From the NCBI RefSeq assembly GCF_004102945.1, contig NZ_CP019384.1, forward strand, positions 1,620,001-1,652,000: a stretch of DNA of 32,000 nucleotides, in the 5' to 3' direction. This DNA is from Candidatus Velamenicoccus archaeovorus (GTDB lineage: Bacteria > Omnitrophota > Gorgyraeia > Velamenicoccales > Velamenicoccaceae). Below, in pieces: positions 4,501 to 27,024 of the stretch (positions are counted from its first letter, which is position 1; every line of letters starts with the position of its first letter). A program made the position numbers and the translations under genes. The notes beneath the pieces were generated by a model, which did not search any database, was not told where the DNA came from, and worked only from the letters and a program-made list of their open reading frames with translations.

Positions 4501-4887
4501 TTATGGAAGATATTTCAAAAGTTTTTCTTTCGTATTTTTACCGGCGATGCCGTCGGCTTTAAGACCCAAATCTTTCTGGAATTGCTTGATCGCGGCGGTG
4601 GTCTTCGGCCCGATCTTGCCGTCAATCTTGCCATCATAATAACCGGCGTTCTTCAGGGCCTGCTGAATCTGCTTCTTCGTCATCGTTGCCGCCGTCGCCC
4701 CTGAAGACTCTTTCTCGAAAGAAACCGGCGCCTCGGACGTCATCACTGGCCCTTCCAACGTCTGGACTTTGCTTTCAAGAACCTGCACGCGGTTTTCCAG
4801 CGAAGCGGAACCCGACTTGGTCGTAGCGCATCCGGCTACGGTCAATGCCGCCGCCAACACCCCAACCCCCATCCACATCCTGTTCAT
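4501..4887 (-). CDS. Lipoprotein with C-terminal peptidoglycan-binding (PG_binding_1) domain (paralogue of 3957..4439)
   Basis: Lipobox LTVAGC. C-terminus AGYYDGKIDGKIGPKTTAAIKQFQKDLGLKADGIAGKNT. I place the start at ATG 4887 (MNRMWMGV...), preceded by AAGGAG 7 nt upstream. The track start at 4929 reads into the repeat element. Confidence 0.8.
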   Translation of the reverse strand: MNRMWMGVGVLAAALTVAGCATTKSGSASLENRVQVLESKVQTLEGPVMTSEAPVSFEKESSGATAATMTKKQIQQALKNAGYYDGKIDGKIGPKTTAAIKQFQKDLGLKADGIAGKNTKEKLLKYLP

Positions 4888-4894
4888 AAGAACC

Positions 4895-5054
4895 CTCCTT
4901 AATTCCGCCTCTGGCGGGATTAACTCCACGTGTATCTCGAGAATTTATGACTGCCCGTCCGAACTCTGTGAGGACTGGTCGCAGACATAAATTGTCGAGA
5001 TGCTTACACGGGGAGTAACGTTTATTTCCTTGATTCTTCCGCCTCTGGCGGAAT
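4895..5054 (-). repeat. Structured intergenic element, family 2, copy 1 (two short hairpins flanking a roughly 90-nt imperfect hairpin; ends in the SD of the downstream gene)
   Basis: About 90% identical to 25786..25946. Long arms 4924..4954 and 4981..5015. Flanking hairpins TTCCGCC-TCT-GGCGG. The minus-strand end reads GGCGGAATTAAGGAG followed by the ATG. Confidence 0.85.
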
Positions 5055-5168
5055 CATTCCTTTTACTTTGCTTTGTGCCATCAATGTCACAACCCGCCAC
5101 GGGCGCACGTCTTATGACATTGAGAAGCGGTTAAGCAGAAAACCTTTGTATTTTTAAAGATTTGAGCC

Positions 5169-5196
5169 AATATATCACAACAGGACTAAAAGTCAA
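5169..5196 (-). promoter_or_regulatory. Sigma-70-type promoter with extended -10 (TTGACT-N16-TGaTATATT)
   Basis: The minus strand reads TTGACT TTTAGTCCTGTTGTGA TATATT. It would give a roughly 270-nt leader containing the family-2 element ahead of ATG 4887. Confidence 0.45.
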
Positions 5197-5410
5197 CCCT
5201 TCGTTGTCCTTGCCCTAAAAAGCGGGGCTTGCCTCAGGGTTGACACTCAAGACGGCGGATACATTACTTTCGCCTTAAAAGGCGAGGATTGACCGCCGGC
5301 GAATGCGTCAAATATCTTTGCAAAAACACGGCATTCCGGCCCCCAGGGCCCCGGTGGATCGCGAAACAGAAAAATGCCTGCCTGGAAGCCTGCTACGAAA
5401 TCACCTGGAG

Positions 5411-5557
5411 CCCCACGGGCCTGCCCTAGGCAAAGCCAGGGCGAGCCCGTGGGGCGACGTCCTGCTCCGCCATGGTTTTGTCTGCAAGACAAAACCAATC
5501 CACGAGCTGGGCCTCGCCTGCCCAAGCGGGCAGGGAATTCTGGAAAACGGGATTAAT
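5411..5557 (-). repeat. GC-rich multi-hairpin intergenic repeat, family 1, copy A
   Basis: The core 5447..5557 aligns with 10962..11072: ccgtgggg.gacgtcc..g..ccgccatggttttgtctgcaagacaaa.ccaatccacg.gc....gcctcgcc.gc.caagcgggcagggaattc.gg.....gggattaat. Hairpins: GGTTTTGTC/GACAAAACC, CCTGCCC/GGGCAGG, CCCCACGGGC/GCCCGTGGGG. Confidence 0.85.
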
Positions 5558-5586
5558 TTGTTTAAGGAAACAGGCGACGATGGAAG
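5552..5586. repeat. 35-nt perfect direct repeat, copy 1 (duplicate of the 3' coding end of the 806-aa gene)
   Basis: attaatttgtttaaggaaacaggcgacgatggaag occurs at 5552..5586 and again at 5623..5657. Confidence 0.9.
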
Positions 5587-5604
5587 TCCTGACAAAATTA
5601 AGGA

Positions 5605-8025
5605 TCACGCTTCTTTTGCCGAATTAATTTGTTTAAGGAAACAGGCGACGATGGAAGGGTCAAACTGACGGCTGGATTCCTTGGCAAGGGCGCTTGCTGT
5701 TTCTTTGCAACTCAAGGGCTTGACACGGTAGGGGCGCGGAGAGATCATCGCCTCATAGGCCTCGGCAACGGCGATCATCCGCGAGACGATCGGGATCATC
5801 CCCCCTTTGAGGCCGCGCGGATACCCCGAACCGTCAAAATGCTCATGGTGATCTAGGACATCCTCTCTAAGGGCCGCCAGGAAAGCGACATCGCCGATGA
5901 GGTCTATGCTGAAAAAAGGATGCCGCCGCACCAGCGCTTTTTCCTGGTCGCTCAGCAAGGATTTGCGCAGAACATCCCTGGGGAGACTCAAAAAACCAAG
6001 GTTGCACAATAACGCTGCGCGCCTCGCACGAGACGCATCCTCTTGCGGCAACGCCATCTCCAGACACAGACCTTCCACATCCTTGACGATACGATCCGTA
6101 TAACCAGGCTCATAGCCGAGGATTTCATCGGTCTTGCGCATCAAAGGCCTGAAGGATTCCAGCAGGGCCTCTTCATTTCTCAAATTCACATACCGCAGTC
6201 GTTGTTTCATCTTCACGAAAAGGTTTTCCTCGGGGGCATGGACAGGATCCTGCGTCTTTGCTATCCCTGCTTCTTCTTTATGGAAAATCGTGATGCGATT
6301 GCGGCCGGCGGCCTTGCTTCGATACATCGCCTGGTCGGCGGCATTCAAAAGGGCCACGGGATCTAAAACATTCACCTCCGGATAAGAGGCGATCCCCATG
6401 CTGATGGTGATGGTCACACGGCGCTCCTTGTTGCCGAGAGGTTTCTGTTTCAGCGCCGCGGCGATCTTACGGGCCGTGGCGAGAGCCCCGAAGCTGTCCG
6501 TATCGGGACAGAAGACGACAAACTCTTCTCCCCCGGAACGCACCACGATGTCCGTCGCGCGTACGCTGATCCTCAGAAGATCTGCGAAGCCTTTAAGGAC
6601 CGTATCTCCGAACAAGTGACCGTAGGCGTCGTTGACAGCCTTAAAGAAATCCAGATCGATCATGATGACGGCGAACGACCGCCAATAACGGCGGGCGCGA
6701 TGAACCTCCTCGTGGAGCCTTTCTTGAAGATAGCGATAATTATACACACCCGTCTGCACGTCCTTGAGCGCATTTTCCACCAGCGAGGCATTGAGCGCCC
6801 GCAGCGTCAGGTTGGCATCCCGCAACTTGATGGATGCCGTCTTGGCCTCCGTGATATCCGAAATGAACACAAGGGTGTGAGGCGGCTGCGTACCGAAGAC
6901 AAGAGGAATGCTGGATGCCAGGGCATAAAGATAATGGCCGTCTTTCTTGACGAAAATAATCTCCTGGGCCCTGCGGATCAGCTTGACGGAAGGAAGATGT
7001 CTGTGTTCCTCGGGCAGAATAAAATCATAAAGGCTCCGATCCACCATCTCCGATTCAAGATACCCCATCAAATCCGAGAAGCTTCTGTTGACGAACTGGA
7101 TCGAATTGTCCGTGCGCAATTCCACGATGCCTTCCACCGCATGCTCCATGATGGTGTGTATCTTTTTGTAATAGTACTCGAGCATCTCCTCCGACTTTTT
7201 CCTCCGGGTGATGTCGCGGAATATCTCCACGCGGCCGCCATTAAGTTCGCCGTGGGTGATGGGATAACTCCAGTGCTCCATATAGTCGATGTCCGGACTG
7301 CCCGGCCTTTTCATCTGGTACTCGACATTCTCCACGGCGGTGTTGGCCTCGTAGGCCGAAAGGATACCCTGCAAAAAAAGGTCATGATCCAGGATCAAGT
7401 CTTTAAAGTTCTCCCGGAAAATCCTGCGTATGTCCTCGCCGACCGCCCCTCTCTTATCGAGGCCAAAATACGTGCCGACGCTTGAAGAGACCCAGTGCAC
7501 CCGGAAACTCCTATCGAGGATCATGATGATGTAATCCAGCGTATCGATACCGTCTTCAAGCATCGATTCGTATTTTTTCTCAAGCCTCTGGACTTCCAAG
7601 AGCTTGGTCCTATCCTTGAAAACGGCCTTGGCGCCGCAGTAACGCCCCTGATTATCGCAGAATGCTATAGAGTTCATCTCGCCGGTGACCTTGCCGCCCC
7701 ACTTGGTCTTCAGGACAAAGTCCTGCATCCGCAGGCGGCCCGACTTCAGGAACTCCTTTGCCCTCTCCGCGAACGCCGCCCGGCTCTCCGGAGCGATGAT
7801 ATCGTACATATGCATGTCCAAACATTCTTTCTTGGTATACCCGAGCGAATCCGCCAACTGTCTGTTGACGTAAATAAATTTCCCCTCGCGGTCGACGATA
7901 CCCATCAGATCGCTGGATTCGTCCAACAGCGTGCGATACTTTTCGTCGATCAGCTGGTAGAGAAGCCGCGAAACCAACGGCAGGTCTTCATCTCCGGGAT
8001 TAAGGATCTTTTCTAAGTAATCCAT
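5605..8025 (-). CDS. Multi-PAS sensor, diguanylate cyclase (GGDEF, GGEEF active-site motif with RxxD I-site) fused to a degenerate HD-GYP domain
   Basis: 806 aa. PAS-like repeats in the N-terminal 400 aa. RATDIVVRSGGEEF (GGEEF at 6520..6534). C-terminal HHEHFDGSGYPRGL. The expected LHDIGK is LCNLGF (C674 N675 at 6001..6006). SD AAAGGAGAG lies before the ATG. Confidence 0.9.
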   Translation of the reverse strand: MDYLEKILNPGDEDLPLVSRLLYQLIDEKYRTLLDESSDLMGIVDREGKFIYVNRQLADSLGYTKKECLDMHMYDIIAPESRAAFAERAKEFLKSGRLRMQDFVLKTKWGGKVTGEMNSIAFCDNQGRYCGAKAVFKDRTKLLEVQRLEKKYESMLEDGIDTLDYIIMILDRSFRVHWVSSSVGTYFGLDKRGAVGEDIRRIFRENFKDLILDHDLFLQGILSAYEANTAVENVEYQMKRPGSPDIDYMEHWSYPITHGELNGGRVEIFRDITRRKKSEEMLEYYYKKIHTIMEHAVEGIVELRTDNSIQFVNRSFSDLMGYLESEMVDRSLYDFILPEEHRHLPSVKLIRRAQEIIFVKKDGHYLYALASSIPLVFGTQPPHTLVFISDITEAKTASIKLRDANLTLRALNASLVENALKDVQTGVYNYRYLQERLHEEVHRARRYWRSFAVIMIDLDFFKAVNDAYGHLFGDTVLKGFADLLRISVRATDIVVRSGGEEFVVFCPDTDSFGALATARKIAAALKQKPLGNKERRVTITISMGIASYPEVNVLDPVALLNAADQAMYRSKAAGRNRITIFHKEEAGIAKTQDPVHAPEENLFVKMKQRLRYVNLRNEEALLESFRPLMRKTDEILGYEPGYTDRIVKDVEGLCLEMALPQEDASRARRAALLCNLGFLSLPRDVLRKSLLSDQEKALVRRHPFFSIDLIGDVAFLAALREDVLDHHEHFDGSGYPRGLKGGMIPIVSRMIAVAEAYEAMISPRPYRVKPLSCKETASALAKESSRQFDPSIVACFLKQINSAKEA
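5623..5657. repeat. 35-nt perfect direct repeat, copy 2 (inside the 806-aa gene; encodes ...SIVACFLKQIN)
   Basis: Identical to 5552..5586. It lies 18 nt upstream of the real stop codon (5605..5607). Confidence 0.9.
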
Positions 8026-10901: not shown

Positions 10902-11072
10902 AGACAGAGGGCCGAGAAGGCCAGCCCTTCGGGCCCGCCCCTGGCTTCCAGTCAGGGGCGGCCGTGGGGTGACGTCCCTGTCCCGCCATGGTTTTGTCTG
11001 CAAGACAAAGCCAATCCACGGGCATAGCCTCGCCCGCTCAAGCGGGCAGGGAATTCCGGCGCAGGGATTAAT
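10902..11072 (-). repeat. GC-rich multi-hairpin intergenic repeat, family 1, copy B
   Basis: It fills the whole gap between the stop of the 407-aa gene (TAA 11068..11070, inside GGGATTAAT) and ATG 10901. Hairpins: CCGCCCCTG/CAGGGGCGG, GGCTTTGTC/GACAAAACC, GCCCGC/GCGGGC. Confidence 0.85.
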
Positions 11073-24166: not shown

Positions 24167-24914
24167 ATTTGGCCCTCTCCTTCTGGGCGTTGCAGTAGAG
24201 CGTAAATTTATCCAGGATCCCTTCGACCGTCAGGCCGTATTTCTCCAGGATGTCTTTCTGGGCGTTGGCGGCCGGATTATCGATCAAACCGCGACAGCCG
24301 ACGCATGGAACACCGTTATTCGGCAACCACGAGTTGCAGCCCGCGCGCGTGATCGGCCCCAGACAAAACTGGCCTTTGTCATACAGGCAGACATTCTCGT
24401 TCTGCCTGCATTCAACACACACGGGATATGTCGGAACCTTGTAGGGTTTGCCCATGAGCACGCATTGCATCACCTTAACGAACTCCGGGCCGTGAATAGG
24501 GCAACCGTGGACATAATAATCCACTTTAACGACGGCATCGATCGGCTTGGCGGCAACGGCGTCCTTGACGGGATCGACGTCTCCGTAAACGATTTTTTTC
24601 TGCTCTTCGAGGGATTTAAGGTTCTTAAGATTATTGACCCCGCCTGTTGCCGCGCAGGCGCCGAGCGCCACGATGACCTTGGCCTTGGCGGCGATCGCCT
24701 TGAGCCTCTCTTCGTCATGCTTGGAGGCGATGCTCCCTTCGACGACGAGGACATCATACTCCTGCCCTTCCTCGCTCATGATTTCGCGGAAATTCACGAT
24801 ATCAACGGCCTTCGTCAACTCCAGAAGGTCGGCGCCGAGATTAGCCACCTGCAGCTGGCATCCTTCGCAATCCGTAAACTCAAAAAAAGCGACTTTGGGC
24901 TTCGCTTTAGACAT
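24144..24914 (-). CDS. [NiFe] hydrogenase small (delta) subunit, group 3-type
   Basis: VAFFEFTDCEGCQ...GACAATGG...HGCP... plus a C-terminal Cys cluster. The start is taken at MSKAKPKV (ATG 24914) with GAGGGGGA upstream. Confidence 0.88.
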   Translation of the reverse strand: MSKAKPKVAFFEFTDCEGCQLQVANLGADLLELTKAVDIVNFREIMSEEGQEYDVLVVEGSIASKHDEERLKAIAAKAKVIVALGACAATGGVNNLKNLKSLEEQKKIVYGDVDPVKDAVAAKPIDAVVKVDYYVHGCPIHGPEFVKVMQCVLMGKPYKVPTYPVCVECRQNENVCLYDKGQFCLGPITRAGCNSWLPNNGVPCVGCRGLIDNPAANAQKDILEKYGLTVEGILDKFTLYCNAQKERAKYDKEFKS

Positions 24915-25779
24915 GGCATTCCCCCTCGTGGCACTCCCCTTCCATCTGCCGCAGCTCATCATAGGTAAAGACCGGGCCGCTCTGGCAGACATAGACGCCG
25001 CGGATCTGGCAGTGGCCGCATTTACCCAGCCCGCACTTCATCTTGCGCTCCAGCGAAACGATGATCTGATGTCCCGGGATCTCTTTCTTCAACAATTCGA
25101 CGATGACGAATTTATACATGATCGGCGGCCCGACGACAACGGCATAGGTCTTTTTCGGCTCGATAGAGGCGCCGGGGATGAGACTCGTGATCAAGCCGAC
25201 GTTGCCTTTCCAGTCCGGGTCGGCGCGGTCCACCGTGCAGTTGAATTTGATGTCCGCCCGTTTCTGCCAGGCTTCGACTTCCTCGCCGAAAAGCATGTCC
25301 TTGGGCGTCTTGCAGCCCAAAAGGATCTGCACGTCGCCGAAATCCTTGCGCTGGTCGAGGATGTAATGGATAAGGGAACGCAACGGGACGATCCCCAGGC
25401 CTCCCGCTACGATCAGGATATCGTTGCCCCGCATCGCATCGAGAGGAAACCCTTTGCCGAACGGCCCGCGGATCCCCAGGACGCTGCCTGTCTCCAGCTT
25501 ATGCATGGCGGTCGTGAGCCCCCCGACGCGGCGGACCGTCAAATCGAAATACCCTTTTTCCGTCGGCGATGAGCAGACGGAAATCGGAGCCTCCCCCACG
25601 CCAAAAAGGGAAACCTGCACAAACTGCCCTGGAACATGTTCCAGGTCTTTTTTACCGTCAAGCTCGATACGAAACAGCTTCTCAAACTCCGTGTATTTGT
25701 TGGTCTTGACGATCTTCGCCTTGACCGGCTTGTACGGAGAGGTCTTGAGAAGCTCCTGATAAGACAATTCTGTTTTCAT
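24907..25779 (-). CDS. Hydrogenase gamma subunit (FAD/NAD(P)-binding oxidoreductase with C-terminal 2Fe-2S; AsrB-like)
   Basis: 290 aa. GQFVQVSLFGVGEAPIS, ILIVAGGLGIVPL and C-terminal CGLGKCGHCQ. Confidence 0.88.
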   Translation of the reverse strand: MKTELSYQELLKTSPYKPVKAKIVKTNKYTEFEKLFRIELDGKKDLEHVPGQFVQVSLFGVGEAPISVCSSPTEKGYFDLTVRRVGGLTTAMHKLETGSVLGIRGPFGKGFPLDAMRGNDILIVAGGLGIVPLRSLIHYILDQRKDFGDVQILLGCKTPKDMLFGEEVEAWQKRADIKFNCTVDRADPDWKGNVGLITSLIPGASIEPKKTYAVVVGPPIMYKFVIVELLKKEIPGHQIIVSLERKMKCGLGKCGHCQIRGVYVCQSGPVFTYDELRQMEGECHEGECHV

Positions 25780-25785
25780 ACCCTA

Positions 25786-25946
25786 CTCCTTAATTCCGCC
25801 TCTGGCAGAATTAACTCCACGTGTATCTTGAGAATTTATGGCTGCCCGCCTGAGCTCTGTGAAGGCTGGTCGCAGACATAAATTGTCAAGATGCTTACAC
25901 GAGGAGTAACGTTACCTTCCTTTAACCTTTCCGCCTCTGGCAGAAT
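25786..25946 (-). repeat. Structured intergenic element, family 2, copy 2 (occupies the beta-gamma intercistronic gap)
   Basis: It aligns end to end with 4895..5054. It starts 13 nt after the beta-subunit stop and ends in AAGGAG 6 nt before the gamma-subunit ATG. Confidence 0.85.
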
Positions 25947-25959
25947 GAGAAGTAAATTG

Positions 25960-26991
25960 CTATGCCTTATTATCCAAGAGGGCATTCACCGTTTCCACCA
26001 GGCTGATCTTGGCCATGCAGGTGCGCGTGCAGCGGCCGCAACCCGTGCAAAAATACTTGTTGTATTTTGTCACAGGGTATTTGAATTTCCGGTAATATCT
26101 GTGGCGCTGGCGGCCGTCCCGTCCGGGACGAAAATCCTCTCCTGTGGCGACTTTGGCAAAATCGTCCATCTGGCAATAGCTCCACGTCCGCGTCCGCACG
26201 CCGTCATTCAGGTTCATCTCCATCTCGTCGGCGATGTCGAAACAGTAACAGGTCGGGCAGACGGCCGTGCAGTTGGTGCAGCCGACGCACCGCCGGCCCA
26301 CGTCCTGCCACACAGGGCTGAAGAATCCGTCGTCAAAGGCCCTCTCGACGGACTTGATATCCTTGCTGAATTCGTTATGAAATTTTTTCAGTTTCTCGTC
26401 CTGGGCTTTTTTCAGCCGGGCCCTGTCCGTCGCGTTCATCTCGCGGATATAGCTCTTGCCGACCGCAAGCTTTTCACCCTTCTCGGAATTAATGTGCATC
26501 GCATAAGATCCGTCCAAGTCCGTCAGCATGATATCATAGCCGCCGCGGGGCACATGGTTGCCGACAGCCGCACAGGACGCATGGCTATCGCAATAGTCCA
26601 TGCACTCGATACCGATAACCGTCGTCTTTTCCTTACGGTTCAGGTAATTCGGATCGGCCGGATTGTCATTGAAGACGACGTCCAGACACTGGATACCCGC
26701 GATATCGCAGGTATGGACGGCAAAAAGGATGTACTCCTCGAACTCCTTAATGGCCTTGTCCGTCTTGTAAGGATCGATGCTGAACTTCAACAGGGCCTCT
26801 TTCTGGGGAAAGTAATATTTCTTGGGGGGCAGGATCGTCGGGATATAGACGAGGGACATCTCTTCGAACTCATCGATGGGGCGGAAGACATACTGGTGTT
26901 CTTTTTTCCTGGGTCCAAAGATCTTGCCGTGGCGTTTTAACGAGTCGAACCACCGCGGCATGTCTTTCTTGGCTATGATCGCATATTTCAT
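25960..26991 (-). CDS. Hydrogenase beta subunit (4Fe-4S ferredoxin-type; AsrA-like)
   Basis: CVGCTNCTAVCPTCYCF and CTGCGRCTRTC clusters. The start is taken at MKYAIIAKKD (ATG 26991) with GGGGGT 6 nt upstream. Confidence 0.88.
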   Translation of the reverse strand: MKYAIIAKKDMPRWFDSLKRHGKIFGPRKKEHQYVFRPIDEFEEMSLVYIPTILPPKKYYFPQKEALLKFSIDPYKTDKAIKEFEEYILFAVHTCDIAGIQCLDVVFNDNPADPNYLNRKEKTTVIGIECMDYCDSHASCAAVGNHVPRGGYDIMLTDLDGSYAMHINSEKGEKLAVGKSYIREMNATDRARLKKAQDEKLKKFHNEFSKDIKSVERAFDDGFFSPVWQDVGRRCVGCTNCTAVCPTCYCFDIADEMEMNLNDGVRTRTWSYCQMDDFAKVATGEDFRPGRDGRQRHRYYRKFKYPVTKYNKYFCTGCGRCTRTCMAKISLVETVNALLDNKA

Positions 26992-27024
26992 ACATTTACC
27001 CCCACAGGACATTGTCAGTCAACT

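Follow-up and report, generated by a model that had tools for sequence, protein, structure and literature searches.

What is the structured element of roughly 160 nt that stands directly ahead of two unrelated genes in a 32,000-nt stretch of the chromosome of Candidatus Velamenicoccus archaeovorus (NZ_CP019384.1, positions 1,620,001 to 1,652,000; hereafter the window)? A preliminary description, made from the sequence alone, had noted copies at 4895-5054 and 25786-25946 and had proposed that selection acts on their structure rather than on coding, and that they supply the ribosome-binding site of the following gene. Positions are given here in window coordinates, the gene strand is the minus strand for both copies, and L-numbers denote loci on contigs of related genomes and metagenomes. 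The two copies belong to a family of the Velamenicoccus clade of the Omnitrophota that is dispersed, modular and recently mobile, and that reaches well beyond this pair. Its members are polymorphic, sense-oriented and adjacent to start codons; they conserve their hairpins, carry a Shine-Dalgarno sequence (SD) and lie in transcribed regions. We read both copies as a dispersed, non-autonomous, mosaic mobile repeat of hairpin modules with a built-in SD, akin to MITEs (miniature inverted-repeat transposable elements) and BIMEs (bacterial interspersed mosaic elements), and give this reading a probability of about 0.55.

Realignment confirmed that the copies match from end to end. Their segments 4895-5038 and 25786-25929 also emerged from a repeat search of the window as a direct repeat of 144 nt with 88% identity, the third-longest there. 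Both copies fold on either strand with z-scores of −4.9 to −7.4, and none of 200 shuffled sequences folded equally well. The order described earlier (short hairpin, imperfect hairpin of about 92 nt, short hairpin) was recovered in both folds; the “second short hairpin”, however, is the first one again and not a separate part. The element is thus a composite of hairpin modules, which on the gene strand follow each other as an A hairpin, a AAGGAAAU-type spacer, the long hairpin C, UUAA, another A hairpin, UUAAGGAG(G) and the start codon. Module A reads UUCCGCC-AGA-GGCGGAA, or UUAA-UUCCGCC-AGA-GGCGGAA-UUAA with its flanks.

In copy 1 the distal A hairpin (5037-5053, minus strand) matches the A consensus UUCCGCC-AGA-GGCGGAA exactly, and A is found at both ends of the unit in all loci. 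It is joined to the long hairpin by the conserved SD-like spacer GAAUCAAGGAAAUAAACGUUA (5016-5036), whose consensus, (U/C)AAGGAAAU(A/U)AACGUUA, stands 5′ of nearly every C hairpin. Module C itself (4924-5015) comprises 34 base pairs with conserved bulges and internal loops, as indicated by folding, covariation and the covariance model; model R1 scores 111 bits on the minus strand of copy 1 versus 45 on the plus strand. The UUAA junction (4920-4923) and the gene-proximal A hairpin (4903-4919) follow, together 4903-4923, the A stem continuing in the local fold through the flanking UUAA/UUAA. The last part, 4885-4902, consists of the SD UUAAGGAGG (4894-4902), a 6-nt spacer (4888-4893) and the ATG (4885-4887) of the PG_binding_1 gene (4501-4887). 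Copy 2, likewise on the minus strand, is built in the same way. Its distal A hairpin, UUCUGCC-AGA-GGCGGAA (25929-25945), contains one U.G pair and is followed by the SD-like spacer AGGUUAAAGGAAGGUAACGUUA (25907-25928), by a C hairpin that scores 114 bits with R1 (25815-25906) and whose sequence recurs identically in L011, and by the UUAA junction with the gene-proximal A hairpin (25794-25814). The unit closes at 25777-25793 with the SD UUAAGGAG, the spacer UAGGGU and the ATG of hydG (24907-25779), which encodes a hydrogenase gamma-type subunit. The subunit shows 100% identity to a Candidatus Velamenicoccus archaeovorus protein encoded on a contig of 1.97 Mb.

The three compensatory base-pair changes reported earlier between the copies could be verified base by base: C4938:G4997 becomes T25829:A25888, T4958:A4974 becomes C25849:G25865, and C4960:G4972 becomes T25851:A25863. 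They account for six of the nine differences within the 92-nt hairpin, all of which are transitions. Of the remaining three, one is in an internal loop, one in the apical loop and one in a bulge; neither copy has a broken pair. When nine random transitions were simulated, at least three compensated pairs arose with P = 7e-4. The pattern holds across 25 distinct C copies, in which 96.2% of cells are paired. Pairs changed on both sides number 9, versus 3.3 ± 1.3 in shuffles (0 of 500 reach 9) and 0 to 1 in slid controls; counted by cells, the figures are 33 observed, 6.6 in shuffles and 0 to 4 in slid controls. One C subfamily has replaced AUCUUGA...UCAAGAU by AGCUGAA...UUCAGCU, and the A stem occurs in six fully compensated variants, with a loop that is purine-rich on the gene strand (AGA or GGA).

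These data uphold one half of the claim of selection on structure and not the other. Pairing is kept by something other than coding, as seen from the covariation among the 25 copies and from the loss of an internal ATG. The small open reading frame (ORF) concerned, AUGUCUGCG...UGGAGUUAA, has 22 codons; it lies within C, starts 100 nt past the hydB stop codon, ends 32 nt before the ATG of hydG, and has CTG in place of its ATG in one subfamily. A coding role for C was rejected, given that ORFs of 22 to 23 codons on both strands lack conservation. The signature of a structured RNA is missing, however. Pairs in C are 95% Watson-Crick, with G.U in 7 cells versus A.C in 5 (A.C on one strand being G.U on the other), and module A has G.U in 4 variants versus A.C in 5. 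The strand evidence was indeed mixed already between the two window copies, as had been noted: in copy 2 both short hairpins, UUCUGCC/GGCGGAA, have U.G when read on the gene strand, and in copy 1 the gene-proximal one, UCCCGCC/GGCGGAA, has C.A there and thus G.T on the plus strand. Since G.U and A.C are about equally common in C and A, the folding strand cannot be assigned from them, and covariation is not proof that RNA is the folded species. A palindrome maintained at the DNA level explains the covariation at least as well as RNA. The conserved bulges and internal loops argue against simple homogenisation from arm to arm and favour the view that a particular folded shape is recognised.

A 19-mer from the hairpin, searched as an exact word, was found at 7 loci in Omnitrophota-type genome bins, and an exact 22-mer on 25 metagenome contigs. 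The wider search, with a covariance model built from 25 distinct hairpins together with nhmmer, gave about 48 forward copies in 274 kb of related loci, which often hold two or three arrays per 8 kb. The covariance model with its filters off found only the two known copies in the window. An Rfam search, which might have linked the element to a known RNA, returned no gathering-score match for the window or for six array-rich loci. Moreover, a permissive Rfam scan of 4700-5700 gave five weak chance matches, none of them overlapping the element, and viral contigs searched with two patterns gave no match. No description of these repeats was found in the literature on Omnitrophota and Velamenicoccus.

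The arrays are assembled from a larger repertoire of modules than the window holds. The unit may be repeated in tandem, as A-C-A-C-A in L025. Modules B (absent from the window) and B2 consist of two mini-hairpins, one preceded by GTAG, which stands directly 5′ of the palindrome (GGGGGTAGACCTTCGC...GCGAAGGGTC and GTAGACCTTCGC...GCGAAGGGTC; L001-L032). Modules D and D2 are also two mini-hairpins and are located within C, E and F are other long hairpins, and A2 is an alternative SD-proximal hairpin. The junctions between modules are UUAA or UAA, and the modules within any one locus are all co-oriented. Most nested insertions in C recur at three places: the apical loop, consensus position 61|62, which is opposite the GA bulge, and 86|87, which is one pair away from an internal loop. 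They were mapped by gap-tolerant pairwise alignment, as alignment to the covariance model forces all of them into the apical loop.

The proposal that the element carries the ribosome-binding site was likewise sustained. On the minus strand both copies end in UUAAGGAG (GGCGGAAUUAAGGAG), 6 to 7 nt before an ATG: copy 1 reads GGCGGAAUUAAGGAGGGUUCUUAUG with its start codon at 4887-4885, and copy 2 reads GGCGGAAUUAAGGAGUAGGGUAUG with its start codon at 25779-25777. The local minimum-free-energy fold of copy 1 leaves the SD unpaired. This genome does not in general start its genes with such an SD, which is weak or missing at most of the approximately 30 other genes of the window. Elsewhere, every traceable array terminates in a short hairpin, U(U/C)AAGGAG and a start codon. 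We counted 33 distinct cases in which this combination is followed by an ORF of at least 60 amino acids, and all 33 are in sense orientation and directly upstream of the start; the gap between the SD and the start codon is 5 to 8 nt across the family. The genes served are unrelated, as had been suggested from the two in the window (the PG_binding_1 protein and the FAD/NAD-binding hydrogenase gamma-type subunit), and about 20 further gene families elsewhere extend the list. It includes ribosomal protein S13, thioredoxin, an acyl carrier protein (ACP)-like protein, desulfoferrodoxin, LemA, a GMP-synthase-like protein, PNPOx, Thi4, an M48 peptidase, HydB, HydG and several small membrane proteins and lipoproteins. 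This lack of relationship rules out a ligand-specific or regulon-specific leader.

Recent mobility is seen at the junction of hydB and hydG. In strains whose HydG is 97 to 99% identical (L036-L050), the two genes overlap by ATGA (...GATGAAAGGAGGGAGTCATGAAGAC...) and there is no element; the same element-free overlap is also found at 80 to 87% HydG identity. The window has about 180 nt more at this junction. The segment present here and absent from the ATGA-overlap strains is 25780-25962 (minus strand). In the window, HydB ends ...DNKA* at a new TAG (25960-25962), and HydG starts behind the SD of the element. The empty site in close strains indicates that copy 2 is a recent insertion into the operon. 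A longer occupied allele is present in L051, a near-identical metagenome-assembled genome of the same species, which has 384 nt between the same left and right junctions. It shares the A-C-A backbone and has three additions: an extra E+A unit, a D module in the 3′ arm of C without duplication, and, with duplication of UAA, a B2 module at the UUAA that separates C from A. B2 is accordingly flanked by TAA in L051 versus a single TTAA in the window, and the same relation is found between L044 and L047.

The shared parts of the element differ by 7.1% between the window and L051, compared with 2.2% at the four-fold sites of hydG, which indicates that the element is not more constrained in sequence than its surroundings. 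From this comparison of alleles, it has probably been overwritten by paralogous copies. The two hydG alleles (25750-25779 versus L051 1501-1530) differ at seven nucleotides, five of which fall within the first 25 nt of the gene, beside the element; this cluster may be the edge of a recombination tract or may reflect selection on the initiation region. Further along the same operon, the close relatives L041-L043 contain a gene for a 129-amino-acid GIY-YIG domain protein between hydG and the hydrogenase small-subunit gene (e.g., L041 2366-2755). This gene, which the window does not have, resembles an independent mobile insertion.

Turnover is equally evident at other sites. Upstream of copy 1 there is a promoter-like site, TTGACT-16-(TG)TATATT (5169-5196, minus strand), with 10 of 12 consensus matches. 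L053 and the element-free L054 keep the same −35 and −10 boxes at their orthologous loci, and this conserved promoter places copy 1 in the 5′ untranslated region (UTR), about 105 nt past the likely transcription start. L054, a distant relative, has a short PG-binding leader with its own SD and no element. The array in this leader is A-C-A in the window, A-C(D)-B-A-C(D2)-A in L057 (a 91% relative) and a different one in L053 (a 97% relative). Upstream of hydB the window contains no array, but four different ones are found there in relatives; in three of these four, the hypA ORF runs into a 5′-truncated C. Element sites therefore turn over quickly. In L039, L044 and L047 the hypA frame passes through a truncated C and a B module and ends ...VTFEEDTLGVDPTRG* at a stop codon within GGGGGTAG. 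Such read-through shows that the repeats rewrite the C termini of upstream proteins, and the HydB of the window likewise ends at a repeat-adjacent TAG.

At the other end of hydB, the longest ORF in the window begins ATGTCCTGTGGGGGTAAATGT (26992-27012), 21 nt upstream of the ATGAAATATGCG start that is common to all orthologues; the annotated hydB start may be 7 codons too far upstream.

A scan of the gene strand found no promoter-like or terminator-like site within either copy. An internal promoter was rejected, given that the TTGACA in the 5′ arm of C has no −10 box at 16 to 18 nt, and so was an intrinsic terminator on this strand, none having been found in the scan. Both copies must hence be covered by transcription that begins upstream; copy 2 is internal to an operon. 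Contigs L003, L016, L052 and L059 end within arrays, which is the expected behaviour of multi-copy repeats, and many PG-binding homologues sit on contigs of 1 to 2 kb. The repeats appear to fragment short-read assemblies of this clade.

How would such an element spread and persist? Propagation would take place at the DNA level, and new sites such as an ATGA overlap with no prior module would need a transposition-like step. Differences between the arrays of related strains would then arise by ectopic recombination or gene conversion between copies, by way of the shared A and UUAA sequences. The machinery of propagation probably recognises the hairpins folded as single strands; this is suggested by complementarity that is alike on both strands, by the conserved bulges, and by the position of most secondary insertions at or beside unpaired nucleotides. 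The insertions that survive would be those that keep the downstream gene translated. With a strong SD at 5 to 8 nt from the ATG, and a clamp hairpin immediately 5′ of this SD to stop it from pairing with upstream sequence, the element would be able to break the ATGA coupling of hydB and hydG, or to occupy the 5′ UTR of the PG-binding gene, without silencing either gene. Once transcribed, the 34-bp C hairpin would be a plausible substrate for a double-strand-specific RNase, by analogy with the Correia element (PMC3049150). A change in mRNA stability would then be likely, as a consequence of insertion and not as the reason for which the element exists.

A bolder version of this mechanism, which we consider unlikely, is that the element homes to the AAGG core of SDs and rebuilds a consensus SD at its 3′ end, via folded single-stranded intermediates. 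If this were so, it could colonise translation starts, overlapping ATGA junctions included, and the frequent landing of secondary modules at or beside unpaired positions of the hairpins would be accounted for. It would also be a new insertion strategy for prokaryotic mobile DNA, a natural “portable RBS”.

Several observations weigh against the reading as a mobile repeat. No transposase or mobilising gene was found: tblastn searches of about 0.3 Mb with an IS200 TnpA and an Escherichia coli RAYT gave chance matches only, which is a weak test given the unverified queries and the small amount of DNA covered. No parent insertion sequence sharing the inverted repeats was seen in the loci examined. 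The A-C-A unit shows no clearly definable target-site duplication, the hydB/hydG junction being compatible with AAGG, with GGCAT, or with none and a 6-nt deletion, and target duplication is equally ambiguous at the hydB-upstream and lipoprotein sites. Module D inserted without duplication, and a simple TAA duplication is found only for B2. Some nested insertions lie inside stems, at 33|34 (L025, L022), 18|19 (L030) and 82-84 (L006, L008, L029), and the copy in L023 adjoins the 3′ end of a convergent gene and not a start codon. The copies were gathered with exact 19- to 22-mers from one arm and within one clade, so that the sample is biased toward conserved members, and the covariation was counted by cells and not by independent events, a count that related copies inflate. 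Finally, strict sense orientation and adjacency to start codons are equally expected of an RNA leader selected by the host.

Such a leader would act in cis, whether by stabilising the mRNA at its 5′ end, by uncoupling cistrons at an RNase III-type processing site, or by presenting a strong SD as an insulator, and would have spread by duplication as it raises expression of the genes behind it. The fixed gap of 5 to 8 nt between SD and ATG, the strict orientation, the placement both in a 5′ UTR and within an operon, and the unpaired SD in the local fold of copy 1 all suit this explanation, as do the conserved bulges and loops, the purine-rich A loop on the gene strand and the covariance-model scores of about 110 bits on the gene strand versus 45 on the opposite one. 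Moreover, many of the downstream genes (S13, thioredoxin, ACP, superoxide reductase) are typically highly expressed. We nevertheless regard it as rather unlikely, because G.U pairs are not in excess over A.C, no Rfam family matches, and the element diverges faster than the adjacent four-fold sites. In addition, arrays at one and the same gene differ wholesale between close strains, some of which have no element at all, which is hard to reconcile with a needed function, and the nested insertions and 5′-truncated copies running into an upstream ORF look like the turnover of junk. A different regulatory role, in which the A palindrome (7-3-7) would be the operator of a protein that co-regulates the downstream genes and the rest of the unit a passenger, is very improbable. 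A is a near-perfect palindrome with a conserved loop and, at copy 1, stands between promoter and start codon; yet its six compensated stem variants preserve pairing and not a recognition sequence, it occurs within operons and in tandem, and the downstream genes share no function.

Movement by known machinery deserves separate consideration, namely as repetitive extragenic palindromes (REPs) moved by a REP-associated tyrosine transposase (RAYT; Y1/HUH type), with the long hairpin as a REPIN and the arrays as BIME-like mosaics. A REPIN is formed by two inverted REPs in a hairpin, and its cognate RAYT gene is single-copy and flanked by the repeats. Insertion without duplication, as seen for module D, is the behaviour of IS200/IS605-type elements, and the arrays are indeed mosaics of small G+C-rich palindromes. 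REPs are palindromes of 20 to 40 bp, at one of whose ends a GTAG or CGTC tag stands unpaired, and the GTAG 5′ of the palindrome in B and B2 is the tag of the GTAG REP superfamily (PMC3733652). On the strength of this tag, a RAYT-type transposase may be present in these genomes. Neither GTAG nor CGTC is present, however, in modules A and C, of which the window copies consist, the arms of C are not themselves tagged palindromes, and no Y1 transposase was found in the approximately 0.3 Mb examined, again a weak test. REPs also lie for the most part downstream of coding regions, in gaps between ORFs that are unidirectional or convergent (PMC3733652), whereas the present family stands upstream of genes, at their start codons. 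This attribution is quite improbable. Lastly, the presence of only two copies in the 32-kb window would fit similarity by chance, or one intergenic region that was simply duplicated locally, without any family. This explanation has next to no probability, being refuted by dozens of copies at unrelated loci in several genomes and metagenomes and by the short-hairpin motif, which occurs 6 times in the window versus 0.15 expected.

As a mobile repeat with its own SD, the family has consequences for its hosts. The Omnitrophota, whose genomes are compact, are ultra-small bacteria that have not been cultured and may be predators; no account of their repeat content was found. The present organism is a member of a limonene-degrading enrichment, whose metatranscriptome data sets are described in PMC12583861. 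The element would show how selfish DNA can survive in tightly packed operons by carrying a strong SD, the one signal that the downstream gene needs. Judged by its location, it may rewire the expression of core genes such as those for hydrogenase subunits, S13, thioredoxin and ACP. Independent initiation would replace translational coupling, and would do so differently among near-identical strains; since the element differs between such strains, it is a likely source of strain-level variation in expression. On the practical side, the repeats break assemblies, lengthen upstream ORFs (the C termini of hypA and hydB) and can mislead the annotation of start codons. The unit of A hairpin and SD can be regarded as a naturally tested, insulated ribosome-binding site of possible interest to synthetic biology.

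Other repeats occur nearby. At 5192-5311 (minus strand), other hairpin repeats add about 115 nt to the window relative to the element-free leader of L054 (GATATTTGAC|TTTTGACCCC...TATATT), and the same segment occurs in L053. This insert lies at the −35 box and is bounded on both sides by TTGAC (5311-5307 and 5196-5192), so that the −35 hexamer is regenerated; it resembles a second repeat family, one that restores the signal into which it has inserted. An 83-nt repeat with 88% identity (5461-5543 and 10977-11059) contains the palindrome TGGTTTTGTCTGCAAGACAAAACCA, and an exact 35-nt direct repeat (5552-5586 and 5623-5657, 71 nt apart) lies near the 3′ end of a GGDEF/HD gene. These two are probably the other “families” of the preliminary description. 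Two long direct repeats, 10374-10673/12339-12638 (300 nt, 97%) and 11065-11334/12887-13156 (270 nt, 80%), each about 1.9 kb apart, suggest the tandem duplication of a gene pair.

How the family relates to known systems depends on which feature is compared. MITEs are short (<300 bp), non-coding sequences with terminal inverted repeats, and module C has these properties: it is 92 nt long, its arms pair over 34 bp with 96% of cells paired, and its internal ORF is not conserved. Integron attC sites have core sites R″ (RYYYAAC)...R′ (GTTRRRY) at the foot of an imperfect hairpin and lie 3′ of promoterless cassettes beside an integrase. This identity was rejected, as the foot of C, AAUAAACGUUA-CUCC...GGAG-UUAAUUC, fits neither core and the flanks are a hydrogenase operon and housekeeping genes. 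The mycobacterial interspersed repetitive units (MIRUs), reportedly described by Supply et al. in 1997, are said to be intercistronic direct repeats in operons, oriented like the flanking genes, with small ORFs that overlap the start and stop codons of their neighbours as a coupling relay. The present family shares the sense orientation within operons (copy 2 between hydB and hydG) and the preservation of downstream translation. In contrast to the MIRUs, its internal ORF does not overlap the start or stop codons of the flanking genes and is not conserved; the SD secures translation instead. In Nostoc, according to what Elhai et al. are said to have reported in 2008, very small hairpin repeats are nested in each other or in larger repeats (MITEs), without obvious duplications and with the hairpins preserved. 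Those repeats differ in phylum and sequence and in having no association with start codons or SDs.

Correia elements of Neisseria and the enterobacterial repetitive intergenic consensus or intergenic repeat units (ERIC/IRU; enterobacteria, Yersinia) resemble the family in being MITE-like, 100 to 170 nt long, folded over their full length into a long imperfect hairpin and located in transcribed intergenic regions. There is no apparent sequence relationship, however, and those elements occur in both orientations and at variable distances from genes and supply no ribosome-binding site. Correia elements also have a defined TA duplication, and none is established here. The RNA hairpin of Correia is cleaved by RNase III and ERIC creates RNase E sites, so that the stability of flanking cistrons is altered (PMC3049150). 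BOX elements of Streptococcus pneumoniae are similarly modular (boxA-boxB(n)-boxC), vary in length by gain and loss of modules, have extensive secondary structure, are co-transcribed and stimulate or inhibit downstream genes (PMC3049150). They are made of other modules in another phylum, are over-represented between convergent genes and have no good SD (PMC3049150), whereas the present family is start-codon-proximal and SD-bearing. For Correia, ERIC and BOX (PMC3049150), neither a strict sense orientation at start codons nor the provision of an SD has been reported.

The family works most like BIME/REP mosaics and REPINs. Like them, it forms intergenic mosaics of small G+C-rich palindromes and conserved linkers, is present in many copies per genome, builds larger hairpins and is co-transcribed with its neighbours, and its module B has the GTAG tag (PMC3733652). 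It differs from BIME/REP in that the modules of the window are untagged, the modules are co-oriented and not alternating, the arrays stand upstream at start codons and end in an SD, and no RAYT was found. Judging by the sequences compared, strict placement in sense at start codons together with an SD of its own appears to set this family apart from the known hairpin repeats considered here.

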